64,000 nt of DNA. Source: Candidatus Latescibacterota bacterium. Its GTDB lineage: Bacteria; Latescibacterota; UBA2968; UBA8231. The stretch lies in the NCBI GenBank assembly GCA_965206595.1, contig OZ242214.1:5696001-5760000 (forward strand), in the 5' to 3' direction. Position 1 is the stretch's first letter. Every line of letters begins with the position of its first letter. Below, one piece after another: positions 16,047 through 48,091 of this stretch. The position numbers and the translations under genes were made by a program. The notes under the pieces are model-generated. The model made no database searches, had not been told where the DNA came from, and saw only the letters and a program-made list of their open reading frames with translations.

Positions 16047-17111
16047 TCAGCCGCGGTAACGGGCCTCGTCGTCCGGTTCCGCCGCGGCGCCGGAAAGCTC
16101 GACCCCGAGTTTGCGTCCGCACTCCTCCAGTTCCGCCCAGGTAGGCGGCGGAATCTCGATGCCGTGGCGCAGGCGCTCGAGGCGGCTGCGGTGCTCGAAA
16201 TCCCCGGGCACGATCACCTCGTCGAAGCCGGGGGCCGGCGGCGTCGACTTGATGCGGTCGAGAAATGCCCGCGCCGCCTCCCGGTAGGGGCCCAGCGGCG
16301 TCAGGTCGTCGACGTTCATCACCAGCATGACGTGGCCGACGATGCGACCGTCGCCCGCCTCGTTTTCTCCCGACAGCCCGCACAGGAGTCCCACGAGCAG
16401 CGACAGGGCGTATCCTTTGTGGCCGCCGAAGCCAAGCAGGTTTCCGCCCTCGAAGTAGGCTTCCGGGTCGACGCTGGGGTTGCCGTCGCGGTCGACGATG
16501 CAGCCGGCAGGCAGGGGCAGGCCGCGGCTGCGGGCGAGCAGGGCCTTGCTGATGGCGATCCTGCTGGTTGCGTAATCGAGCACGAAGGGCGGGCCGTGCG
16601 AGGTGGGAATCCCCGCGGCGATCGGGTTGGTGCCCAGGGCTCCTTTCGCGCCCCCGTAGGGAAGCGTGCACGAGCCGCTGCCGCCGTAGAGGACGATGCC
16701 GATGAACCCCTCCCGGGCGGCCATCTCTGCGTACTCCCCCAGGCGCCCTATGTGCTGGATGCGGCGGAAGCTGGCGCGGCAGAACTCGTTTTCCGCGGCC
16801 TTCTCGAGCAGCCTCCTCATGCCCCAGCGGGCGACGTAATGTCCGTGGCCGTCGCGGCCGTCGATGACGAGACTGGCAGCCGTCTCCCTGACGACCGCCG
16901 GCTCGGCCGCGGCATCGAGCTGTGCGTCGGCAATCGACTTCAGATACCTCGGCAGATGGAGGACCCCGTGGGAATCGTGGCCCGCGAGGTTGGAGTTCAC
17001 GAGCACTGCGGCGACTACGTCGGCGATGTGCCGCGGCGTGGCCGCGGCCATCAGCAGTCGGCGGATGAGGCCGTGAAGCCCTGGCGCGGACAGTCTTTTC
17101 GGGGGGGACAT
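16047..17111 (-). CDS. Ldh_2 family oxidoreductase (malate/L-lactate/sulfolactate dehydrogenase-like)
   Basis: GHDSHGV, HIGRLGEY, GTNPIA, LDYATS, GGHKGYAL. Start set at ATG 17111. Confidence 0.88.
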   Translation of the reverse strand: MSPPKRLSAPGLHGLIRRLLMAAATPRHIADVVAAVLVNSNLAGHDSHGVLHLPRYLKSIADAQLDAAAEPAVVRETAASLVIDGRDGHGHYVARWGMRRLLEKAAENEFCRASFRRIQHIGRLGEYAEMAAREGFIGIVLYGGSGSCTLPYGGAKGALGTNPIAAGIPTSHGPPFVLDYATSRIAISKALLARSRGLPLPAGCIVDRDGNPSVDPEAYFEGGNLLGFGGHKGYALSLLVGLLCGLSGENEAGDGRIVGHVMLVMNVDDLTPLGPYREAARAFLDRIKSTPPAPGFDEVIVPGDFEHRSRLERLRHGIEIPPPTWAELEECGRKLGVELSGAAAEPDDEARYRG

Positions 17112-17248
17112 TCGCAGTGCTCCCATCAGGTATGGAGTTTGACAATCTCTTCCCGCGGGGCGCCCTTGCCAAATCGTGCCGGCAGGTGGGAAGACCTGGC
17201 AGGGGGAGGATACAGATGGCCGTGGATCGTGTAGATCCTCCGCGGCGG

Positions 17249-17620
17249 TCATCTCCGCGCAAGGAAATGAATAACGGACCCGACGATAGCGCCTACGGCA
17301 CCGCTGAGGGTGAGAACCAGTCCGATCACCTTCCACATTGTTTCAACCCCCATCTTGCCGGTCAACCCGGTGGCGAGAGTCTTGATGTCCTCTGCCTGGC
17401 GGTGCAGATCCTCCTGAACGCTGTGCATAAGCAGATCGACGGTTTCCTTGTCCGATTTTTTCTCCATCTCGTGCTCGATGAGCGTCAGACGAGTCTGAAT
17501 CTCGCGGCGATGATCTTCGAGGATGCCGCGGAACTCGTTGCGCCAAGTGTCGAATGTGTGGGTGAGGAGGCGCTCCCCCTGCTCCCAGTCGAGGTGCGTT
17601 GTGGAATGTGGTTTGTCCAT
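17249..17620 (-). CDS. Hypothetical 123-aa coiled-coil protein with a C-terminal TM helix
   Basis: Charged helical body, then MWKVIGLVLTLSGAVGAIVGSVIHFLARR. Preceded by motif copy A. Confidence 0.65.
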   Translation of the reverse strand: MDKPHSTTHLDWEQGERLLTHTFDTWRNEFRGILEDHRREIQTRLTLIEHEMEKKSDKETVDLLMHSVQEDLHRQAEDIKTLATGLTGKMGVETMWKVIGLVLTLSGAVGAIVGSVIHFLARR

Positions 17621-17721
17621 CGAGGTCTTTCGTTTGAGTGAAAGGCTGACCAACCGGATAGAAGTCCTGACAGCTGTGGAAGTCCCGCGATTAGGCCACC
17701 CCATGCATTAAAAGGGTTACT

Positions 17722-17747
17722 TACCGGATGACAGGAAAAGGTGTCGG
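17722..17747 (-). promoter_or_regulatory. Putative alternative-sigma promoter, copy A
   Basis: Minus strand CCGACAC-cttttcctgtcat-CCGGTA(AG). Confidence 0.6.
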
Positions 17748-17857
17748 GTGTGGCTGAGGCAAAGTGAAGGCCAAAATCGGTGCGTCGGTCCATGAAAAAT
17801 CTCAGGCCGGCTCGGAAGAAAAATGGTGGTGGTCCAGACAAAACTGATGACAATAAA

Positions 17858-18030
17858 CTGGCGCAGGTCGCTTTCGGAAATCGCACTCTCAGGAGGTCTT
17901 TTCATGGGGGTCGCCGTATCCGGAGAATCTGCAACACACAACCAATCCCGAAAATACCGACAAACCCCAAAACCCGCGTAGGTATTTCTTTATATGCTCA
18001 AACTACAACTGCAGGGGACTGAACGGTTAC
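17858..18030 (-). mobile_element. IS66-family left-end remnant
   Basis: Closely matches about 27686-27856, including the terminal ...GGACTGAACGGTTAC and the first codons MKRPPES.ISE.DLRQ. Confidence 0.85.
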
Positions 18031-18045
18031 CAATAAAGAAACCAA

Positions 18046-18071
18046 CCGACATTTTCCCAGATTCTTCGGTA
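18046..18071 (+). promoter_or_regulatory. Putative alternative-sigma promoter, copy B
   Basis: CCGACAT-tttcccagattct-TCGGTA(AG). Confidence 0.55.
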
Positions 18072-18089
18072 AGAATAGGTGAACCTATC

Positions 18090-18612
18090 TCAAAATTGAA
18101 ATTGTTTAAGTAAAATCAAAATGGATGCAAGTTGGACGAAGCCAAGAAAATTCTCCGGATACAATTCCCAGCGAGTGATCACCCGACGCTGCCATTGAAG
18201 CCAAGCAAAGAATCTCTCAACCATCCAACGCCGCACATATCGCCGCAATCGCCGTCCATCCTGAGTCTTTTTCTTGGTCCGATTCTGGCGATGCGGAGCG
18301 ATCATCTCGATCCCGTCTTTCTTAACTACTTCATCCAACCAATCGCTGTCGTACGCTTTGTCACCGATCAAGTTGTCAGGTTGGTCTTCGATCAGGTAAA
18401 AGTCAAAAGTCAACTGAACCAGCGTCACTTCATGATGGTTCGCTGCATGCGTGCTCACCGACAAGGGAGGCCCATTGCCGTCCACGATCCCCATGACCCG
18501 CACCCCCTTACCTCGCTTGGTGTGGCCGATATCGGCACCTCCACCCTTGGCCGCCGAGAACATGCCATCGATGAAAGCCTCCGATTCGTCCAGGCCCCCT
18601 TGCTCGTGAAGT
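18090..18612 (-). pseudogene. IS5-family transposase, C-terminal part
   Basis: FIDGMFSAAKGGG, LIGDKAYDSD, RRWMVERFFAWL. N-terminus missing. Confidence 0.88.
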
Positions 18613-18636
18613 GTCTTTGAATAGAAGTTTTGGGAT

Positions 18637-19245
18637 GTGAACGGACTGTATCTCGATCCCCCAGAAAAGGCCCTGGTCCTGTGTTGCGACGAGAAGTGCC
18701 CGTGTCAGGCGTTGGAGCGCAGTCAGCCGGGCTTGCCTTTGGGCGTGGGGGAGCTTCGCACCAGGACGCACGACTACAAACGCCACGGGACGATCACCCT
18801 GTTTGCCGCGTTGAACTACCTGGACGGCAAGCTCATCGCACGCACCGAGGAGCAGCACACCCACGTGGAGTGGCTGCGCTTCTTGAAACAGATCGACCGA
18901 GAAACCCCGAAGGAGTTGGATCTGCACCTGATCGTCGACAACTACAGCACGCACAAAGAAGACAGGGTCAAACAGTGGCTGTCTCGGCACCCGCGCTTTC
19001 ACCTCCATTTCACTCCGACCGGTTCGTCCTGGTTAAACCTGATCGAACGTTTCTTCGGCGAACTGACGCAGGACGTGATCCGCGATGGCAGCTTCTCCAG
19101 CCTCAAAGCGCTGGTGAAAGACATCGAAAGCTATCTGGCCGAGAGGAACCGGAACCCCAAGCCCTACAAGTGGAAGGCGCGAGGCGAGGACATCCTGCGC
19201 AAGATCCAACGCGCCCGGCAGGCGCTGGAAGCCGAGCAGGGTTAA
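18637..19245 (+). pseudogene. IS630-family transposase, C-terminal part
   Basis: [35 protein letters not shown] region missing. Confidence 0.9.
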
Positions 19246-19270
19246 TTCCTTCTATTTAACGGACACTACA

Positions 19271-20362
19271 TTAGGTTGGTTTTGCCATGCGGTAGCCGAC
19301 GCGATTCGCAGTGAAGATATACGTGGGATTGCGTGCATCGTCGCCCAGCTTCTGACGAATGTCTTTTACATAGCCCCGTACGGCCTGCGGATCGTCCGAG
19401 TGACCCGAACCCCAGACCCGTTCCCCCAATTGACGGTGGGTCAACACCCGCCCGGCGTTGGCGGAAAGCTCGTGTAGCAGCCTGTACTCGGTCGGGGTCA
19501 GCTCAACCTGACGGCCGGCAAGGGTCACGGACCGTTCTTCGTAGTCGATCGTCAGGTTTCCGAGCCGATAGAGTGGCGGCATACCAGCCCGCGGCGGTTG
19601 TGGATCCTCGACTGTTGATTGAGCGTCCAGCCCCTTTCCCTCACCCCCAAGAACCGGGATGCGATGCCCCTGGCCTTTCTTGTCTGCCACGGGAATGGCG
19701 AAGGTGATTCGCGTACTGCCGCCCGTTTCGACGCCCACCGCCCATATCCGGCCGCCATGGGCCTCCACTATGCCCTTGCAGATCGCCAGGCTTAAGAGGC
19801 TGGCTCGTACGTCTTGCTCCCGGTTCTCGGAATCTATCCAAGAGAACTTTTCGACCTGATTCGGGAGGTGCACCGCTGAAATTCCCCTGCTCTCGTCTGC
19901 TACAGAGATCGCCACGAGGAGATCCGCAGCCCAAGCGGTCACCCTGATGGTAGACCCGTGGGGTGAGTACTTGGAGGCGTTGACGAAGAGCCTGTCCAAC
20001 ACTTGCAGGATGCGCTGTTTTTCCGCCATTACCTGGGGAAGGTTCCCCGGAAGATCGACATCGACGGGGTTTCGGGCTCCACTGAGCAGGAAGGTAGACC
20101 TGGCGTGGTCGACCAAGGCGGGGACATCAGTTGGCTCAGTTACAAATGAGAGATCTCCGGCCTCGACTTGGGTCATGTCGAGAAGGTCGTTGATCAGGCT
20201 GCGCAGAAGGTTGGCCTGATCGTCGATGATTTGAAATAGATGACGCGTCTCCACAGGGTCGGGTGGAGATGAGGCGGTGAGCGCCATGGTCGTCGAACCC
20301 TTGATGGTGGAAAGCGGAACCCGCAGCTTTTGGCTGACCTTGGAGAGGAACTCTGAACGCAT
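19271..20362 (-). pseudogene. Degenerate histidine kinase fused to an OmpR-type winged helix (KdpD/KdpE-like)
   Basis: H-box reads VSQKLRVPL (His lost), NASKYS, eroded G boxes, GIVEAHGGRIW, then LTPTEYRLL..RVGYRM. No receiver domain. Confidence 0.7.
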
Positions 20363-21023
20363 CCTTCCAACTCCTTCAGGGGCGTGATCTCATGGATAAC
20401 GGCAGGAGCCGACAGGACCTACCGTCTTTCGAGTGAATCGGTGTTGTGACGACGAGCGCGGTGATCGGGGTCGTCGTCACGATGGAGGGCCATATGGTGG
20501 GTGCGCACGGTCTCGCCTTTGACGAGCCCGCGTTCATATGGTAGTGAGGAGGCTGGCCTCGCTCAGCCGGGAGATTCGAGCTCTACGCGGCTTGTTTTCC
20601 TGTGGTTCCCATTCTGGTTCCGGCATGGCTCGGCCTGCCTGCGTTGCGGGAATTAGGCCGTTGGAGGGGCATACTTCTGAACTGCTGCATAGCTCATATA
20701 ACGGGACAATTTTGGTGCGCGTCAAGAAAAATATGACCCAAATTACCTCACATCCCAAAAAGGTGGGGCAAATAGCGGATATAACTTTGTGTAGTCAATA
20801 CATGGGCCTCTACGCCTTATCCATGAATGCTATAGTCCCCTATATATGCATCGCCACTATTTCCATATGGAATCCGAATATTTCCTTCCCCCAAATTGGG
20901 TGAAATTAGGAGTCGTGATCTTTCGAACAGGGCGCTCTGTAACCTTCTTGAAATAAACCCCATTTGAACCGAGGTTAGGTCAGCCATAGGTTTTTGAAAA
21001 GGGAATCGATGGAGGAGGATGGA

Positions 21024-21356
21024 ATGACAGATGGGGTGACGAAGGCGGCCCTGACTCCTGCTAGGCGCCGTCTGGTCGAAATGATGCAGGAGATCAACTT
21101 CGGGCGCCTCGAAGGGCTCGAAGTGCGAGATGGGGAACCGTTATTCGATCCACCGCCCTTGGCCGTGCGTCAAGTGGTGTTCGGGAAGAAGAACGGGCCG
21201 AAAGATAGTCGGGCCCAGGACGGCTACGCACTGAAGAAGAAGGTGGCGGAGCTGTTCGAGGTCTTCGACCGGGAGCAGATGTTCCGAGTCCTGGAGCTCG
21301 TGATCGACGACCGGTTGCCCCTCCGCATGACCGTGGCAGGGGGGTTGGGGAACTGA
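21024..21356 (+). CDS. Small 110-aa hypothetical protein, copy 1
   Basis: GGAGGAGG RBS. 88/110 identical to copy 2 by manual count. Confidence 0.85.
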   Translation: MTDGVTKAALTPARRRLVEMMQEINFGRLEGLEVRDGEPLFDPPPLAVRQVVFGKKNGPKDSRAQDGYALKKKVAELFEVFDREQMFRVLELVIDDRLPLRMTVAGGLGN

Positions 21357-21390
21357 AATCCGGCCCCGGTCAAAGCCGCGGTCCTTCGCG

Positions 21391-21498
21391 CAAGACTACC
21401 GGTTGCCCGCAGAAGCGGAGGCCTTTGTGGGTGTCGCCGCACCGGTGTCCTCGCAAGGCTTCCGCTTCTGTGTTTGAGGCGGGCCTTCCGGCCCCAGG
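21391..21498 (+). ncRNA. Putative structured RNA (attenuator-like hairpin), copy 1
   Basis: Stem CAGAAGCGGAGGCCTT/AAGGCTTCCGCTTCTG (21410-21470) with inner CGCCG-cac-CGGTG hairpin. Conserved with copy 2. Confidence 0.55.
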
Positions 21499-21532
21499 AA
21501 ATACAATCGCCCCACCCGGTTGGCTCAGACGT

Positions 21533-21558
21533 CCGACACTTTTCCCGATTTGCCGGTA
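21533..21558 (+). promoter_or_regulatory. Putative alternative-sigma promoter, copy C (would be autoregulatory)
   Basis: CCGACAC-ttttcccgatttg-CCGGTA, upstream of small ORF copy 2 and the sigma gene. Confidence 0.6.
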
Positions 21559-21634
21559 TGAAACCGTAGCTGAACCGGAACGGAATCAAGGGAACCATGG
21601 GATTGAACGGCGTGACCGAAACGGACCAACTGGA

Positions 21635-21967
21635 ATGACCGATGGTATAACCAAGGCGGCCCTGACTCCTGCCAGGCGCCGCCTTGTCGAAATGATGCAG
21701 GAGACCAACTTCGGGCGCATCGAAGGGCTCGAAGTGCGCAACGGGGAGCCCGTTCTCGATCCACCGCCCAGGGCGGTGCGCCAGATGGTGTTCGGCAAGA
21801 AGAACGGACCGAACGCGGGCCGCTCCAACAGCGGCTGTGCACTCAAGAAGAAAGTGGCGGAATTGTTCGAGGTCTTCGACCGGGAGCAGACGTTCCGGGT
21901 CCTGGAACTCGTGATCGACGATGGCCTGCCCGTCCGCATGACCGTGGCGGACGGGGATCGGACCTGA
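21635..21967 (+). CDS. Small 110-aa hypothetical protein, copy 2
   Basis: MTDGITKAALTPARRRLVEMMQ...; same length as copy 1, starting 611 bp downstream. Confidence 0.85.
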   Translation: MTDGITKAALTPARRRLVEMMQETNFGRIEGLEVRNGEPVLDPPPRAVRQMVFGKKNGPNAGRSNSGCALKKKVAELFEVFDREQTFRVLELVIDDGLPVRMTVADGDRT

Positions 21968-22002
21968 ATCCGGCCCCCAGGGAATAGACACGGTCTTTCA
22001 CA

Positions 22003-22109
22003 CCAGACAACCGGCTGGCCGCAGGAGCGGAGGTCGTTGTGGGTGTCGCCGAGCCGGCGTCCTCACAAGGCTTCCGCTTTTTTGTTTGAGGCGGCCTTGC
22101 CGGTCCAGG
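22003..22109 (+). ncRNA. Putative structured RNA (attenuator-like hairpin plus U tract), copy 2
   Basis: AGGAGCGGAGGTC-G-TTGTGGG...CGCCG-agc-CGGCG...CTCACAA-GGCTTCCGCTTTT, followed by TTGTTT. Confidence 0.55.
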
Positions 22110-22151
22110 TCGACCCCTGCGCCCGCTTCTGCCCGGCCCGGAGGAGGCGCA

Positions 22152-22742
22152 ATGAGTTTTGACCCCCGGCAAGGCGGCATCGACCCCTATGCCGCACAGC
22201 ACATTCGGTTCAAGGCCAGGCAGCTGGCCGGGCGGGCAGGTTTCGGGGCCGGCGAGCGCAAGGACCTGGAACAGGAGCTGTTCCTGGACCTGTTGCAACG
22301 GCTTCCCCAGTACGACCCGGAGCGCGCGCGGCGCACCACCTTCATCTCCCGGGTGGTGGCCAACCGGGTCTCGACCCTAATCGAGTCGCAGAAGGCGGGT
22401 TTGCGGGATTACCGTCTCCGCGGCGGCTCGTTGAACGAGCGCCTGGAGGACGAGGAAGGGCGTTCGGTGGAGCGCCTGGACACCCTGGATGGGGAGGACT
22501 ACCTGCTGCGCACCGGGGCGGTGTCGCGGCCGTGGGAGGAGCGGCAGGCCCTGGCCATCGACCTGGCGGCGCTGCTGGAAACCCTGCCGCCGGAGTGGCG
22601 CCTGCTGTGCCGCCGTCTGAGGGTGGAGACGGTCTCGGAGATTTCCCGGGATACCGGGATTGCGCGAGGGACGATCTACGAGTGGATCGGGAAGCTGCGG
22701 GGGATCTTCGAGGAGGCGGGCCTGAGGGAGTACCTCGAATAG
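22152..22742 (+). CDS. ECF-like sigma-70 family factor (regions 2 and 4)
   Basis: GGAGGAGG RBS. Region 2: ERKDLEQELFLDLL..YDPER...TFISRVVANR. Region 4 HTH: LETLPPEWR..TVSEISRDTGIARGTI. Confidence 0.82.
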   Translation: MSFDPRQGGIDPYAAQHIRFKARQLAGRAGFGAGERKDLEQELFLDLLQRLPQYDPERARRTTFISRVVANRVSTLIESQKAGLRDYRLRGGSLNERLEDEEGRSVERLDTLDGEDYLLRTGAVSRPWEERQALAIDLAALLETLPPEWRLLCRRLRVETVSEISRDTGIARGTIYEWIGKLRGIFEEAGLREYLE

Positions 22743-22848
22743 GGGGTACCGATGTCGGGCTCCTAGATTGGAATGAAGGGCTCCGTGGCTCGTGAGTTCT
22801 AGTGGGGCGTTCTATTCGAGATGGTTCGAGGAAAAGAGGGAAGGAATC

Positions 22849-22874
22849 CCGACACATTGCTTCAGATTCCGGTA
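22849..22874 (+). promoter_or_regulatory. Putative alternative-sigma promoter, copy D
   Basis: CCGACAC-attgcttcagatt-CCGGTA(AG), upstream of the 23095 gene. Confidence 0.6.
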
Positions 22875-23599
22875 AGAAACAAGTGCGTTCACCAATCATG
22901 GGCTGGGCGGCATGGCAAAAAGATGCTGGGGTTCTCGCTTTCAGCCAGCACAAGAAGAAGATGGCCAAATTTAATTCCACATCCAAGTAACCAAAGGGGG
23001 TCATATTCATGAATACACACTGAACGATACATTGAAGCAGGTTGTTTCAATCCGACCACAACGTAGCACACCACTCGAAAAAAAGGGAACCAAAATGAAA
23101 CTTCTCCACGAGCCTGGAAGTATGAAGGGCCTGAGTATCCAATCTCTGCAGACCTATGGATTCGACACGTACCAGTACGGGGCCACGCCCGACCGAGCCA
23201 ACAACGTGGACGGTCTGTGGACCGCCATGCAAAGTAACGTTTCCGGCCACTTCCAGGACTGGAACTCTCTGGACATCTACTGGGCTCTCAACCTCGAGGG
23301 AGACTCCCATGTGTTTCCCAACGGGTACACTTGGAACGGGATGCAGTTGGAGACGTACGACAGAAACGGGTTTTATGATACTCCCAGCCACCAGTTCTAC
23401 TCCAACATCCGGCAGATCGTTACCGAGCTGAGAGACTTCTCTCGCGCCGGGACCCGGCTGAAGGGAATACGGTGGAATCACGAATACGGTCCTGTGGTTT
23501 GGAAGATAGGATCCGATTGGGCAACGTACGCCATGGAGCACGCCCCCGCGGATTTCCAGACTGTAGTCGCCCATCGGGCAACCGAATGGGAATATTTCC

Positions 23600-25063
23600 G
23601 GCTATATCCGGGTTTTTCAAAGGACATTTTATAGCATGTACAGAGAGAGATATTGAGTGATTCACACGGTACGGAATCGGGCCGGAATCTGCGCAGGGAT
23701 ATCGAGGTCTCCGACGCACAGGTAAATGAGGTCGGCAAAGGCATCCAGAGATTTAAATCCACTGGCTCGATTCTTGACCATGCGGATGATTCGATTGAGC
23801 CCTTCGGCGGCGGCGTTGGTCAGGTGCGTGTCGACGAAGGCCGTGATGCCGGCCGCATGCTTGCGCACCGTGTTGACGAACCTGCGCAGGGGCTCCAGGC
23901 GGCTGCGCAGGGCCGCCGTCGTCCACTTCTTGAGGAAGCGTTCGGCGGCCCAGCGCGCCTTGTAGCGCCAGAAGTGCTCGAACTCGTCCTTCAGGCGCCA
24001 GGCGCGGTAGATGCGGCGGTTGGCCTTCTCCAGGGTTTGGAGCGTGCGCCGGTCCTTTGGCGAGCGCCGGGCGGAGTGATGCAGCAGCACCCAGCGCAGG
24101 CCCTTGAGCAGCTTGCGGTCCTCGCCGCAGGCTTGCCGCCACTGTTCCTTGCGCACCTCGTCGACGGCTTCGTTGAGGGCCTTGACGACGTGGAATCGGT
24201 CCAGGACGAGCTGGGCGTTGGGGCAGTGCTGGCGGATGGCGCCGATGAAGGTCTCGCTCATATCGCAGCAGGCCCAGCGGATACGGGCCTTCCGGAAGGC
24301 GCTGAGATGGTCCCGGAAGAACGTATCGATCGTTTCGCGGGCCTTGCCCTTGCCGATCCAGACGACACAGGAGCGCTCCAGGTCGTAGACCAGGGTGGCG
24401 TATTTATGGCCCTTGGCGTAGGAGATCTCGTCGATGCCGAGGGTCGTCAGCGCGCGGATGCGATGGCCTGTACGCCGGCGCTCGATGAGCCGGTGCACCT
24501 GGTCGGACAGGGTCGAAGGAGCCAGGCCCAGCAAGCGCGCGGCGGTGACCTGCGGCATCCACTGGCAGTAGGTCAGCAGCAGGTATTCGAAGCGGTAGCT
24601 GACCCGGGCCGAGGGCGCTGCCCAGGGCACCTCCTCGACGTGCCGGCCGTGGGTCGGACAGCGGATCTCTCGAGGGCGGTGGTACAACCAGACGGTACGG
24701 CCGCAAATGCGGACGTCGCGCCAGCGGCGGGGCTCCATGACCTGTACGATCTTGCCCCGGCGCCCACACTCGGGACACCGGCACCCGTTCCTTTGGGGCT
24801 TCACCGCGACCACGACGGCCGCTTCCTCCCCGTGTCCTTCGAACCACACGCCCACAGCGCCAAACCCCTTGAACTTGAACAGCTTGGAGACGAACTTCAT
24901 AGCGGTCATAGGTCGCCTTCCCTTCCCTTTCCTGGGGAGTGCTTGATGGGGATACACCAAGCATAGGGAACGACCTATGGCCTTGTCATGTACTCAGATG
25001 AACAGCAAGGGCTCAGGTGCTTTCCGTACTTACGTTTCGGCGTTGAAAAACCCGGATAGACCC
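23600..25063 (-). mobile_element. ISL3-family element, complete copy 3 (1464 bp)
   Basis: IRs GGCTATATCCGGGTTTTTCAA and TTGAAAAACCCGGATAGACCC. 8-bp TSD ATATTTCC at 23592-23599 and 25064-25071. Confidence 0.96.
23662..24909 (-). CDS. ISL3-family transposase (intact)
   Basis: GIDEIS, CCDMS, DRFHV, TNAAAEGLN..KNRASGF. Likely start is ATG 24909. Confidence 0.95.
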   Translation of the reverse strand: MTAMKFVSKLFKFKGFGAVGVWFEGHGEEAAVVVAVKPQRNGCRCPECGRRGKIVQVMEPRRWRDVRICGRTVWLYHRPREIRCPTHGRHVEEVPWAAPSARVSYRFEYLLLTYCQWMPQVTAARLLGLAPSTLSDQVHRLIERRRTGHRIRALTTLGIDEISYAKGHKYATLVYDLERSCVVWIGKGKARETIDTFFRDHLSAFRKARIRWACCDMSETFIGAIRQHCPNAQLVLDRFHVVKALNEAVDEVRKEQWRQACGEDRKLLKGLRWVLLHHSARRSPKDRRTLQTLEKANRRIYRAWRLKDEFEHFWRYKARWAAERFLKKWTTAALRSRLEPLRRFVNTVRKHAAGITAFVDTHLTNAAAEGLNRIIRMVKNRASGFKSLDAFADLIYLCVGDLDIPAQIPARFRTV

Positions 25064-25774
25064 ATATTTCCGCAGGGCCTGTGCTCCCCACACCAATGTG
25101 CCTGAGGAACATGAACTTGGCGGAAAAGGGGCCTACGACGGTCCGACTCAGGCCCCATGGAACGGTTCCAACTACACAGAGGTAAAAAGGCTTTATCGAC
25201 ATCTGGTTCATTTTCAGGCCGATTGCCAGGCGAAGATGATCGGGCACGTATCCGACATTCTCACTGACATCGACTCGGACCTCAATCTTATTATCTTTCC
25301 ACCTGCGCAAGGACCTTCTGATTGGGGTTTACAAGAGTATACTCTGGACATGAGCCGGAATAACCTCACCAGTAAAACAAACATCGTGTGGGAGTTCGCT
25401 GATCAGGACGCAGTTGACGACGGACACATCCACAATCTGAAGGAATGGGCAGGCCAAGCGACGACTGCCGGCGCGGACTACTTCTTCACCTTGCGGCAGC
25501 TGCTAAATTCGACCGATTTCCAGACAAGGCTCGACAGGGTGGAGCAGCAGGCTGCCAACCGGTTCTGCAAAAACAAAGACGGGAGTGTTCTTTCGGGTAC
25601 AAGCGATCTGGACAGACCCTGGAACGAAAGCTTCGGGTTCTGGAGCAAGTGGTTCTCTTCTAATGCCGGAAACGGCAACATCACTGTTGCCCAGCAGACA
25701 GAGTATGCTCAGGAACTAAAGGACGCGCTGAACGAGCACGGCTAGCAGGTCCCATTCTGGTTGGGAATGAACAG

Positions 25775-25801
25775 GGGGTGGCTGCGCCCGCAGCCGCCCC
25801 C
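25775..25801. terminator. Hairpin between convergent genes (possible bidirectional terminator)
   Basis: GGGGTGGCTGCG-cc-CGCAGCCGCCCC followed by TTATTTTT. Confidence 0.6.
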
Positions 25802-26235
25802 GTTATTTTTCAGGACAGCAGGCATGACGCGATAGTTCCCTTTTGATTTCGCCCCAGCTGTTCGGCTTGATTCCGGTGGGGGTATCTACCTGCACGAATT
25901 TCAGGACACGACGCAGTGCCTCCCGGTCTGTCCTGCTAAAGTAGGCGATCTGATCGCCGGCCGGGCTCCAGTGGGGCCCGAAGTTCTGTCGTGAATCGAA
26001 CGTCAGGTGGCTGATCTGTCGAAGCGAATCTCCCGAAGCGACGACGATCTGCCCCTTGAGACTGAATGCCAGCCGTTGGCCGTCGGGAGACCAAGAAGTA
26101 GAGGTAGGAGGCAGGCTTTGACGGATTTTCCAAGGTGTCCCGCCCAGTTTCTTTACGAAGAGTCCGTGTGGGGGGACCCAATCGTCAGGCATCCCGAGTT
26201 CAGAATTGGAGATACCGTACGTTTGTACTTTGAAG

Positions 26236-27856
26236 GTAACCGTTCAGTTCCCCTGGCAGGTTGGGGGCGGGGGCGGAATGGTAGCAGAATATTAGCGAAT
26301 GGGGGAGTGGGTTGAAGGCAGCAGCGAGGGCGCCGGCTGCTGAGACACGGCCGCGTCACAGGCCATCCTGAGATAGTCGAGGACGTTGCGCTGCTGCTGG
26401 CGCAGGGTATCGCGTACCGTGAGCAGGCGCTCTACGAAACGGCTGCCTTCGGCACTGTGGGTACCGAAGCTGGTGTGACGCCACAACACGCCATGGCGAA
26501 GGGCTCGTTCGGCTTCGTTGTTGGTCGGCTCGACGCCGGGCCGGCGTGCGCAGGTCCACAGGGCCGGCCCGAGGTCGAGGAGATTGGCGCAGGTGGCCGC
26601 CGTCTTGGCGTCGGCGAACTGCTGCCCATAGCACAAATGAAAACGAAAGCGCAGACACAAATCGTCGATATAGTCCTGGAAGCGGGCGCGGGACAGGGTA
26701 CCGTCGCGGACTTGATGCCACCAGGTAAACAGCTGCTCGCTGCGGTCCAACAGGTGGTGACCGACGCGCCCGGCCTCTCCGCCCCGGGCCACGAACTCCT
26801 CGAAGGCGCGCCGCAGATGAGCCCAGCACACGTGCCGGCGTCGTAGCGGCAGATGCGCGTAGGCCGAATAGCGATCGGAGCCGACCACCGCCCGGTTGTC
26901 CGCACCCAGCACCTCATCGACCCCGTCCCGTCCCCGGCTTGGGCGAATGGCGAACACGGTGACGCCGGCCGTCACCGCGGTCCACAACCAGGCCTTGGCG
27001 CGGCGCTGGCGCCAGCCGGTCTCGTCGACGTTGACGAGGCCCTGTCGGCGAACGAAGGCGCGCGCCTCCTCGACCGCACCCGCCAGGGCCCGCGGCCACT
27101 TCCCGTTCCAGTCGGCTGACCGTACCCAGCGACACCTCGAGGCCGAAGGCGTCGGACAACAACGCCCGGATGTTGCGCTTGCTCAGCCGGTAGGCCCCGG
27201 CCAGCAGGCCGACCCAGGCTTGCACGCTGGGACCGAAGGTGTGGCGCGACACGCCCTCGGGCCAACCGGCTGCGGTCAGGCGGTCGCAGTGACCGCAGCG
27301 CAGGGTGTGCAACTGATACTCGATGACCTCGGCCCGCAGCGGCGGGATGACGACTTCCTGGTGACGCTGCGGATGAGGATCGTCTCCCGTCAACGGGTGC
27401 CCGCATCCGTGGCACGTACTCGGCTTGACCGGGATCCGTTCGTCCACCTGCTCCACCGATACCCACGAGCGGCCGTGTCCTTCGTGCCCGGGCTGTCCGC
27501 CCGGCGAGCGCCCCGAGGATCGGCGTCGGGAGGTGTCGGTGCGCGGCGAGGAGGAAGCGCCCGATTGCGACGAGGCGGCCCGGGCACCGCGGCGGGAGCG
27601 CCCCTTGCGGCGGGCCAATTCCCGCTCCAGCTCCCCGATGCGCGCCGTCTGTTGTTCCACGATCTGCTCAAGCTGGACAATGCGCTGGCGCAGGTCGCCT
27701 TCGGAAATCGTACTCTCAGGAGGTCTCTTCATGGGGTCGCCGTATCCAGGGAAATCTGCAACACACAACCGATCCCGAAGATACCGACGAACCCGAAAAC
27801 CCGCTTAGGTATTTCTTTATATGCTCAAACTACTGCAGGGGGGACTGAACGGTTAC
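26236..27856 (-). mobile_element. IS66-family element (single-ORF type); transposase frameshifted near 27090
   Basis: Ends GTAACCGTTCAGT and ACTGAACGGTTAC. 8-bp TSD CTTTGAAG at 26228-26235 and 27857-27864. Motifs PGGQPGHEG, VDETGW, CWAHLRR, PTNNEAERALR. Confidence 0.95.
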
Positions 27857-28027
27857 CTTTGAAGTAATAGGCCAACCGTGAGGTGACCGCAGACCAGCTC
27901 ATGCTACCGGGGCTGCATTCTGCTCCACTTACCCGTCGGTACGGGTCTGGTTCCGGGTCCAGGATTCTCGTGGATTTGTGCTGGGAGTGACGTATCGCCC
28001 ATCCATCCACGGATTGGTACACGATTC

Positions 28028-29200
28028 CTAGTGTCCTGTCGTATAATTAACTGTACAAACAATTGAAGGTGCCGTAGGTTTCTCTTATCCCCTTTCTGAA
28101 AGGAGAGACCTATGGTGACGGGGCGTCCATTACCGCCGTTAGAGCTGAGTCCGTCGGACCGGGAACGGTTGGAATCGATGGCCAAATCCCGGAGCCTTTC
28201 CCACGGGTTGGTGCGGCGAGCCGAGATTATTCTGCTGGCCGCAGAAGGCTGGCCCAATGAAGCCGTCGCCGCCGCCGTGGGTGTGACGCGTGCTACGGTC
28301 GGCAAGTGGCGCCGGCGCTTTCTCGAAAACGGGCTCCAGGGCTTGCATGATGAGCTGCGCTCAGGGGCGCCACGATCGAGTACGGATGAACAGGTAGCCG
28401 AGGTGGTATACAAGACCCTGAAGACCAAGCCCAAAGACGAAACACAGTGGTCGGTGCGCTCCATGGGCGAAGAAACCGGCTTGACCAAGGACGCGGTTCA
28501 TCGCATTTGGCGCACGTATGGTTTGCAGCCCCATCGACACAAGCACTTCACGCTTTCCACCGATCCTTTCTTTGTCGACAAAGTACGGGATATCGTCGGC
28601 TTGTACCTGAATCCCCCCGAGCACGCCCTGGTGCTGTGCGTCGACGAGAAGAGCCGGATCCAGGCGTTGGAACGAAGTCAGCCCATGCTGCCCCTGGGAC
28701 TGGGATACGTGGAAGGGATTACGCACGATTACAAGCGCCATGGCACCACCACCCTGTTTGCCGCCTTGGACGTAGCCACCGGGGAAGTGATGACCCAGTG
28801 CAAGCCCCGTCATCGTCACCAGGAGTTCCTTCAGTTCCTGCGCCACATCGAGGCCCACGTCCCCGCTGACCTCGATATTCATCTCGTCGTCGACAACTAC
28901 GCCACGCATAAGCAGGCCAAGGTCAAGCGATGGCTGGCACGGCGTCCCCGATTTCACGTTCACTACACCCCCACCTATGCTTCGTGGCTCAATCAGGTGG
29001 AGATCTGGTTCAATATCCTTACCCGCCAGGCGGTTCGGCGCGATTCGTTCCGCAAGGTGTCGGAGCTCATCGAGCGCATTGAACGCTACACGGCCAAATG
29101 GAACGCCAACGCACACCCTTTCGTGTGGACGGCTACGGCCGATTCCATCCTCGCGAAAATCAAGAGACTTTGCGAACGAATCTCTGCGACACAACACTAG
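28028..29200 (+). mobile_element. IS630-family element with intact transposase (28112-29200)
   Basis: CTAG at both ends (28028-28031 and 29197-29200). Imperfect IRs TGTCCTGTCG/CGACACAACA. Motifs VDEK, DNYATHK, SWLNQVE. Confidence 0.94.
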
Positions 29201-29668
29201 CGACCACCAGTCGGTTACGTCGTAATCGAGGCGGTCCAGGACGATTTTCTTGTGGAATTCTCCTTCGAGATTTTCTATGAAAATCACCGGGGCGGGTTCT
29301 TCGTATTCGGAGTTTCTGACCGGCAGAAGCTGGGATTGCCAGTAAGCATAGCGGTCTCCGGACGGGGACCATCCCACCGCTTGGCCCTCCCCGATTCGTC
29401 GACGGGCCGAACCATCCGCCTGCACGATGAACGGCTCCCACGTCAGTGTGTTCCCCGTCCTGCTCTTGAGGGTGAACAGAATCCTGTCTTCGACCGGCGA
29501 CCACCTCGGATCAGACCCGGGTCCGATGGAAGTGACCTGATGGCTGTACGCATCCACCACAAACAGCTCCTCTTCATCCACATATACAAGGCGATCTCCT
29601 TGCGGAGACCACGACAAGTTTTCTGCCGAAACAGAAGCCGCGGCAATGACGAGCGGGACAGAAATTTC

Positions 29669-48007: not shown

Positions 48008-48091
48008 TGCGGAAGGGGGGACTCGAACCCCCAAGCCCGTTAGGGCACCAGATCCTAAATCTGGCGCGTCTGCCAGTTCCGCCACTCCCGC
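48008..48091 (-). tRNA. tRNA-Leu (TAG)
   Basis: GCGGGAGTGGCGGAACTGGCAGACGCG-CCAGA-TTTAGGA-TCTGG, long variable arm, GGGGGTTCGAGTCCCCC-CTTCCGCA. CCA not encoded. Confidence 0.97.

Follow-up and report, generated by a model that had tools for sequence, protein, structure and literature searches.

A 30-nt motif beside a sigma factor gene of Candidatus Latescibacterota is very likely the promoter read by the sigma of a widespread temperate phage family that includes Wolbachia phage WO

Phage-encoded sigma factors such as SPO1 gp28, T4 gp55 and PBSX Xpf divert the host polymerase to phage promoters of the middle or late class, and come from lytic phages or a Bacillus defective prophage. In the CI RNA of P4 and the C4 antisense control of P1/P7, a central segment complementary to flanking segments lies ahead of a lytic activator gene. 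The sigma factor considered here is encoded in a 64,000-nucleotide stretch of a Candidatus Latescibacterota genome (the window) and belongs to a family of prophages and integrative elements found in many phyla. It is set apart by description from the SPO1, T4 and PBSX sigmas: it occurs in many Gram-negative phyla, and a single sigma seems to serve excision, replication and late genes. Its RNA leader shares the central-segment complementarity of P4 CI and P1/P7 C4 and differs in having no Rfam match.

Among plasmid systems, SigN (ZpdN) of Bacillus subtilis pBS32 has a validated promoter with a -35 box ending in ACG, a T tract and a GATATA-type -10 box (accessible part of PMC6751061). SigN resembles the present family as a sigma of ~200 aa on a mobile element, with an element-confined regulon and replication-type genes under its control, but has another consensus with a spacing ~3 nt shorter (counted by hand). 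It also autoactivates and spares the pBS32 prophage region, whereas in our family an upstream site is rare and packaging and tail operons are targeted. Sequence similarity between the two is weak (hhalign probability 13%, E 0.002), short of homology. The regulon, described earlier as island-specific, is indeed confined to the island in this genome, as with SigN, the top four genome matches all lying there, but the motif is family-wide and not private to one island. The group 4 (ECF) sigmas, as covered in the accessible part of PMC7826278, share with the family a minimal two-domain sigma and a tightly spaced two-box promoter in which a T tract follows the -35 box; phage ECFs are not captured by the ECF classification. 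The family departs from them in that the window sigma scores below the cut-off of the sigma70-ECF model TIGR02937 (39.4 bits against 42.9), no anti-sigma was found and autoregulation is rare. A literature search, with most subscription journals outside its scope, found no paper on the promoter of this sigma family.

Four copies of a 30-nt motif

The four copies reported in the preliminary description were recovered with exact coordinates and strands and 0 mismatches, and no fifth occurs in the window at <=1 mismatch (Table 1; gene calls throughout are from our own heuristic). The 26-bp form first given, CCGACAY-N13-YCGGTA, is real but too short. The full motif is CCGAC[AG]nTT-N12-CGGTAnGTA (30 nt): its -10 part in the family reads CGGTAnGTA, and positions 8-9 are rich in T. 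An AG follows directly in three copies, and three (sites 1, 3 and 4) are aimed at a downstream gene, with gaps of 98, 73 and 217 bp past the 30-nt motif, both as originally claimed.

Chance is excluded as the source of the four copies. Shuffles of the window contained a mean of 0.18 copies and reached 4 in 0/100 cases, and 25 other spacers put the chance rate at 0.0065 per 64 kb. The motif, whose frequency in the genome had been left for checking, is not frequent: exact copies in the whole genome (7,053,161 bases) number 5 at spacer 13, whereas the remaining spacers between 8 and 19 give 0-1 each, and the fifth lies within a gene on the opposite strand. The worry over a post-hoc definition is removed because a matrix trained on other genomes only (80 unique sites, with three sites of the window's own lineage left out) ranks the four window sites first in the 7.05-Mb genome, at 28.6, 23.0, 22.5 and 21.4 bits; the next match, at 19.0 bits, is within a gene. 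We give next to no credence to the idea that recombination, packaging or chance explains the copies. IS ends do abound in the region and the family carries recombinases, but the spacer is free in sequence while fixed in length, and the copies stand ahead of operons in gene orientation and not at element ends.

Equivalents of site 1 precede the same gene in six relatives (G002, G004, G020, L036, L037 and L062), and site 3 has equivalents in G002, L036, L037 and L062. Site 2 has as its target no gene, only an IS5 remnant beginning 5 bp past the site, and its G002 equivalent stands ahead of an intact D1-family gene. Site 4 begins 107 bp past the sigma stop, a distance that in relatives is mostly 2-9 bp.

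Table 1. Features of the island (positions in the window)
Feature	Positions	Strand	Description
Late gene	17249..17620	-	123-aa helical protein, one hydrophobic C-terminal segment
Site 1	17718..17747	-	Best family-promoter match (28.6 bits); aimed at gene 17620-17249
IS66 end remnant	17849..18030		Between sites 1 and 2
Site 2	18046..18075	+	Divergent partner of site 1; orphaned
IS5 and IS630 remnants	18080..19275		G002 has D1 gene and PD40 gene in place
Histidine kinase / winged-helix gene	19271..20362	-	363 aa here, 691 aa in G002; without motif site
u1	21024..21356	+	110-aa conserved protein
Truncated RNA leader copy	21388..21494	+	Long hairpin kept, 3' part lost; z -4.65
Site 3	21533..21562	+	Aimed at u2, RNA leader and sigma
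u2	21635..21967	+	Tandem duplicate of u1, 82% identical
Structured RNA leader of sigma gene	22000..22151	+	Conserved; mutually exclusive pairings; hairpin over ribosome-binding site
Sigma factor	22152..22742	+	196 aa, open frame; region-2 helices, linker, helix-turn-helix
Site 4	22849..22878	+	Canonical post-sigma promoter of the family; aimed at D1
D1 cargo gene	23095..25745	+	~393 aa, no evident signal peptide, glycoside-hydrolase-like TIM barrel
ISL3 insertion in D1	23592..25063	-	1472 nt, 9-nt overlap at joint; strain-variable
PD40 beta-propeller gene	25803..29665	-	Convergent on D1; three pieces, separated by IS66 and IS630

The sigma factor and its homologous loci

The sigma gene is present in a single copy in the genome. 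Its product passes the Pfam cut-off for region 2 (Sigma70_r2, PF04542; 27.1 bits against 24), and 49/49 family members match TIGR02937 at E <= 0.001. Region 4 has no Pfam match and a weak one to HTH_29, with C-terminal helices in the predicted model; a Foldseek search with this model, which is of modest confidence (pLDDT 61), returned sigma factors (best E 4.5e-4). Neither the sigma profile nor the D1 profile matched any PDB sequence, and tblastn of the sigma against a plasmid collection was likewise without a match. A sigma-only query of viral contigs gave 1 weak locus, which was left out.

The motif, whose absence near homologous sigma genes had been set down as evidence against the reading, stands at the sigma stop, aimed at the next operon, in 142/165 homologous loci (83 unique sequences, many phyla), a count that overstates independence, the loci being related to each other. 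It is held down to ~30% sigma identity, and 23/165 loci have no good post-sigma site; Syntrophus buswellii and Desulfosarcina are among the sources of sigma homologues. In intact elements, the operon behind this site carries replication genes, and recombinase, packaging and tail/lysis operons have further copies in front of them. Spacing is tightly fixed: CCGAC..CGGTA at a total length of 26 occurs 246 times in 166 loci, as against 2-13 times at each of 12 other lengths, and sites outside the training set number 122 unique ones versus 0, 1, 0 and 1 at shifted spacers. The proposed check for intergenic and co-oriented enrichment, run on the homologous loci, came out in favor of the reading, with 118/121 non-training sites intergenic (random 19%) and 111/115 co-oriented with the next gene (random 57%). 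Loci fetched by the 17249 gene, without use of the sigma, carry the motif in 6/6 viral contigs, ahead of tail/endolysin or baseplate operons. Among genomes of the phylum (n=151), 3 carry the sigma, with 4, 3 and 3 motif copies near it; 143 of the 148 without it have no copy and 5 hold 1-2, one of these (G016) being an element that lost its sigma. A scan of viral sequences at spacer 15 matched at least 139 loci, with a sigma end <=300 bp upstream in only 12 of the 139 matches listed; the control is not empty, because spacer 16 also gave 52 loci.

Motif variants track sigma clades. A C22>G change goes with Arg at sigma residue 78 (12/12 vs 0/111), a link confined to one clade, and motif position 4 is linked, with exceptions, to residue 176. 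Kinship dominates the mutual information between motif and sigma columns, and only these two links are reported. Of 206 sites, 60% have a pyrimidine-purine step at motif positions 36-37, as against 7-44% for neighboring positions. The start is thus predicted at this step, ~11 nt past GGTA and not the few nucleotides first expected.

These loci also bear on the proposal that the sigma has nothing to do with phage and is an ECF stress sigma of the classical kind, which regulates itself, has an anti-sigma encoded next to it and governs a small private regulon. An ECF-like size and two-domain layout would suit such a sigma, as would site 3 upstream of the sigma operon and the lack of phage core genes in the window. 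Against it, replication genes occur in 131/165 loci and a DUF2924/serine-recombinase pair in 95/165, and viral contigs are the source of 80 loci. No anti-sigma family was detected adjoining the sigma, although the u1/u2 family has no assigned family. The ECF-type autoregulation first suggested has a candidate site in the window (site 3) but is rare in the family: a same-strand site <=1.2 kb upstream of the sigma was found in only 5/151 loci, such sites being mostly in phage-less loci like that of the window. For the family, the stress-ECF reading is largely refuted, and we hold it to be very improbable here; the sigma is one of a phage lytic programme.

The homologue in Wolbachia phage WO

In phage WO, gwv_1123 is annotated as 'RNA polymerase sigma factor' (KX522565) and is homologous to the family over its full length (98.8%, E 1e-16, 157 columns), although the protein is ~30 aa shorter in the linker. 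It is followed by the same AAA_24 gene as in the family (55%), where the order is sigma, motif, AAA_24 replication module; in the window this module is lost. A variant of the motif, A+T-rich unlike that of the family, lies behind the WO sigma gene and ahead of the divergent late operon, the same places as in the family. The WO loci that were scored are also those from which the pattern had been drawn by eye; in the first two WO loci scanned, the GC-rich matrix gave no hit.

Cappable-seq starts have been published for WO (supplement rows of PMC12558409). Four primary starts in these rows lie 33-37 nt behind the WO motif (distances counted by hand), which is the spacing expected of a -35/-10 promoter; one of the four is 3-4 nt further out, and the DNA in which the starts lie is A+T-rich, with TATA-like hexamers open to use by host sigma-70. 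The accessible main text of PMC12558409 describes a sigma-70 motif and an unexplained TAAAAT, not the WO two-box motif. PMC9203015 contains 0 occurrences of 'sigma' or 'promoter', and no promoter or role for the WO sigma was found in the accessible parts of these two papers.

The same hexamers are what one would expect if the motif were bound by a different product of the element, be it u, the repressor or that of either unknown upstream gene, acting with host sigma-70, the sigma being a mere neighbor. Such a protein would also account for the copies still present in G016 and G024, in neither of which a sigma was found, and for CCG and CGG facing each other like an inverted pair. Even so, the motif stays in place though u is absent from 62/165 loci and repressor genes from 96/165, and the window retains only u and the sigma. 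The motif is, moreover, directional with -35/-10 geometry, and a sigma-70 scan of 17000-26500 gave 3 sites, at the chance level of 2.9, with none at the four copies. We consider this explanation unlikely. With high confidence, we prefer the reading in which the motif is the -35/-10 promoter of the adjacent sigma, itself an activator of temperate phages and integrative elements whose core has been lost here. The preliminary description had called the motif the promoter of the sigma at 22152: it behaves as one, with starts behind the homologous WO motif, but typically it directly follows the sigma gene instead of preceding it.

A reduced element, its RNA leader and its cargo

What this genome retains of the element is the sigma, its RNA leader, cargo genes and a single phage late gene. 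The recombinase, replication and structural genes that define an intact prophage were not found here: tblastn of 9 element proteins against the genome found none, except a weak DnaG match elsewhere. Several cargo genes are broken by IS elements; D1, split by ISL3 here, is unbroken in three other runs. Glycoside-hydrolase rows of an atlas search served as leads for D1 that were later matched by fold search, while D1 and u themselves match unnamed clusters only. PADLOC matched 0/9 proteins. D1 was compared with an Acidobacteriota cargo family and is unrelated to it. Homologues of the 17249..17620 gene sit in phage tail/lysis operons, and a holin- or spanin-like role for its product is a guess.

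The u family occurs directly upstream of the sigma leader in 103/165 sigma loci, and u1 has no Pfam, NCBIfam or PHROGs match. In the leader, a central segment is complementary to both an upstream and a downstream segment, with 97% and 99% of cells paired and changes on both sides; the pairings were reached in 0/500 shuffles, a figure that is not a probability as the sequences are related. The 3' pairings are weakened in the window's copy. Rfam, at gathering and E-value thresholds, found nothing in the region, including C4 and CI models. Upstream of the sigma, 69/165 loci carry a LexA-like or HTH gene.

From this arrangement we infer the following order of events. The sigma would be expressed last in an early operon comprising a LexA-like or XRE repressor gene, two unknown genes, u and the RNA leader, which may hold sigma expression back. 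Once made, it would redirect host RNA polymerase to its own promoters, with CCGAC[AG]nTT as the -35 element, CGGTAnGTA as an extended -10 and a start ~34 nt behind the G of GAC, and so turn on operons for replication, the recombinase, packaging and tail/lysis. With the phage core lost from this genome, the remaining sigma and promoters are aimed at D1 cargo genes and the one late gene, and site 3 would route the sigma onto its own operon, a possible positive feedback loop.

More tentatively, and with considerable doubt, a phage switch may have been domesticated. Once the phage core was gone, hosts of two phyla would have kept the sigma, leader and promoters, gained the feedback site, and come to run arrays of variable cytoplasmic cargo (D1 TIM barrels or the unrelated Acidobacteriota family) facing exported partners, with the late membrane gene for release, as a bacteriocin-like or lysis-export system. 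The lytic activator of phage WO, so far undescribed, would belong to this sigma family as well. Phage-less loci would then show a phage switch rewired to cargo arrays. The 30-nt motif is nearly absent from host genomes and could serve as an orthogonal promoter. For phage WO, where the accessible parts of PMC9203015 and PMC12558409 name no activator or promoter, two-box sites that flank the sigma gene and coincide with published transcription starts offer a handle. A specific promoter and regulon can very likely be assigned to an uncharacterized sigma family in prophages of many phyla, and the lytic programme of these elements would therefore be readable from sequence.

Sigma family and its recurrent motif

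The sigma gene at 22152 encodes 196 aa with a region-2 match and a score slightly below the sigma70-ECF cut-off, and its structure model (pLDDT 61) matches sigma factors within initiation complexes. An alignment of 49 of the 169 relatives listed (E <= 1e-10), used as a query, brought in 79 loci from genomes, 80 from viral contigs and 6 from relatives, the window being one of the six. With L001, which has no usable sigma, excluded, the set comprises 165 loci from Acidobacteriota, Thermodesulfobacteriota, Planctomycetota, Chloroflexota, Pseudomonadota, Latescibacterota and others. The typical order is DUF2924, serine recombinase, LexA-like or XRE repressor, two uncharacterised genes, the conserved gene u, sigma, PD-(D/E)XK, AAA_24, DUF669, helicase, primase, ParB-methylase, terminase and portal. 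Replication genes occur in 131 loci and the DUF2924/serine recombinase pair in 95; the element is of prophage type.

The preliminary description had reported four copies of CCGACAY-N13-YCGGTA in the window, all intergenic and three aimed at downstream genes. All are present exactly as described, 4/4 are intergenic, and sites 1, 3 and 4 face genes; site 2 has an IS66 end on one side and an IS5 remnant on the other. Far from being frequent, the motif has one further exact copy in the whole genome, within a gene, and spacers other than 13 give 0-1 copies. A matrix trained without this lineage returned the four window sites as its top genome picks.

Nor is the motif absent near homologous sigma genes: 142/165 loci have one at the sigma stop, and 83 unique post-sigma sites yield the consensus CCGAC[AG]nTT-N12-CGGTAnGTA. 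Across the loci, the CCGAC..CGGTA pair occurs 246 times at total length 26, versus 2-13 times at other lengths. Away from the training position there are 122 sites, against 0-1 with shifted spacers. Of such sites, 118/121 are intergenic (random, 19%) and 111/115 face the next gene (random, 57%); their targets include the recombinase operon (~43), the uncharacterised gene c22 (17), ParB-methylase (10), RecD2 (6) and a portal gene (3). The sequences counted are related, and the genes were called with our own heuristic. One sigma clade (L127, L134, L137, L141 and L153) has, by eye, the deviant post-sigma motif CGGACA-N15-GCA[TC]AnGTA and also a different recognition helix, and would be a natural specificity variant.

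Probable recognition by the adjacent sigma

The motif is very probably the promoter of the adjacent sigma. Sigma is the sole gene common to all 165 loci, which were themselves picked by sigma; u is missing from 62. Motif variants track sigma clades. For instance, the GGGTA variant accompanies Arg78 in 12/12 cases versus 0/111 elsewhere, residue 78, in region 2.4, being the best-scoring column, although all 12 belong to one clade. In about three lineages, with exceptions, position 4 of the -35 box changes together with recognition-helix residue 176. As signs that the sigma reads the motif, these observations are suggestive only.

Other tests did not start from the sigma. Homologues of the late gene (behind site 1) lie within tail and endolysin operons of six viral contigs, and the motif precedes these operons in 6/6 (10 sites; the contigs are close kin). 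Within the phylum, 151 genomes were compared: sigma occurs in 3, which hold 4, 3 and 3 copies; of the 148 without, 143 hold none, 3 hold one and 2 hold two, one of the last (G016) being an element with its sigma region deleted. A viral scan with fixed boxes at spacer 15 gave at least 139 loci, against 52 for the spacer-16 control, and regained the T-richness of positions 8-9 and the pyrimidines of positions 19-21, both absent from the search pattern.

A pyrimidine-purine step occurs at motif positions 36-37, 34 nt behind the G of GAC, in 60% of 206 pooled sites. In the Wolbachia phage WO, a homologous sigma is followed by the same AAA_24 gene. A related motif, its pattern drawn by eye, lies behind the sigma gene in 5/6 WO loci and ahead of a divergent operon in 6/6, with 15 matches in the six loci versus 0.07-0.3 per locus in shuffles. 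The preliminary description had suggested mapping transcription starts; four published ones (supplement of PMC12558409), counted by hand, fall 33-37 nt past the motif G, namely the primary starts for WD0590 and WD0593 of wMelPop-CLA (34 and 37 nt) and two for DEJ70_RS04885 of wAlbB (34 and 33 nt). GGACG appears among the upstream sequences of the supplement's wMel table in the WD0590 and WD0593 rows only, and the excerpted main text of that paper does not report the motif. Host sigma-70 may use these starts instead, the DNA there being A+T-rich.

Sigmas that bring their own promoters are already known from phages and plasmids. Among validated systems, SigN of pBS32 (excerpted text of PMC6751061) comes nearest, though its sequence is only weakly similar to our sigma. 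Phage ECFs are described as not captured by the ECF classification (excerpted text of PMC7826278). Our literature search found no description of this family's promoter; the family, its promoter, its leader and the WO link appear undescribed.

Leader RNA and upstream control

Of 151 loci, 5 have a same-strand site in the 1.2 kb preceding sigma: 4/11 without element core genes (window included) versus 1/140 with them. Wherever u is present, a conserved leader separates it from sigma. In 50 aligned leaders (A2), the central segment has three alternative pairings: it can form part of a long hairpin, or join either an upstream or a downstream segment. A final hairpin masks the ribosome-binding site; the pairings are backed by changes on both sides. 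The leader, which has no Rfam match, would be, we infer, an attenuation-type switch, presumably akin to P4 CI and P1 C4. The window has two copies of u plus leader, separated by site 3, and its downstream pairing and last hairpin are degenerate. Loci without u (L117, L123-L125, L128-L160) have another upstream region, with A/T tracts and repeated TGAAATTTCAC-like palindromes, perhaps repressor operators.

Islands without a phage core

No recombinase, replication or tail genes of the sigma-element family were found in the genome. An equivalent island occupies the identical place in G002, ordered as late gene, divergent site pair, the cargo gene D1 and further u-sigma-site-D1 units with convergent PD40 (beta-propeller) genes; one of its two sigmas carries a stop. 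Because D1 follows the divergent pair there, IS elements are taken to have cost site 2 its D1 target. Site 4 would drive D1, modelled at pLDDT 93 as a glycoside-hydrolase-like TIM barrel (fold matches with a best E of 2.4e-5 and identity ~10%). D1 is split by ISL3 in the window, but three runs belonging to two other studies have contigs with an unbroken D1, which indicates a strain-level insertion.

Features of the window and of comparison loci
Feature	Position	Remarks
Sites 1 to 4	17718..17747 (-), 18046..18075 (+), 21533..21562 (+), 22849..22878 (+)	
Leader copies	22000-22151 and 21388-21494	
ISL3 insertion in D1	23592-25063	Missing in runs X4, X5, X6
Histidine kinase fused to winged-helix output domain	19271-20362	Shorter than 691-aa G002 counterpart
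tRNA gene	48008-48091 (-)	Sole Rfam match in window
G004 locus	C1:2194000-2214000	Latescibacterota; sigma, sites, late gene, D1 genes, FGE-sulfatase or propeller partners
G020 locus	C1:1337000-1356000	Latescibacterota; sigma, sites, late gene, D1 genes, FGE-sulfatase or propeller partners
G016 motif copies	C2:172281 and 197585	Element remnant with recombinase and tail-gene fragments
G024 motif copies	C86:4397-4496	No sigma found in G024
WO motif variants	L167 14480, 15520, 21138; also L168, L377-L380	Flank WO sigma gene, some ahead of tail-fibre/baseplate region; differ among WO sigma subtypes

The layout of sigma, sites, late gene and repeated cargo is shared by G004, G020 and three Acidobacteriota loci; opposite the cargo stand partner genes whose products have hydrophobic N-termini. 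In the Acidobacteriota loci (L036, L037 and L062), which have no phage core, three conserved genes follow the late gene, and there are repeated convergent pairs of uncharacterised 265-aa proteins. D1 and the Acidobacteriota cargo are unrelated. The phage-less loci may represent domestication or decay; for some strains, broken sigmas (in G002 and L062) and the abundance of IS insertions speak for decay.
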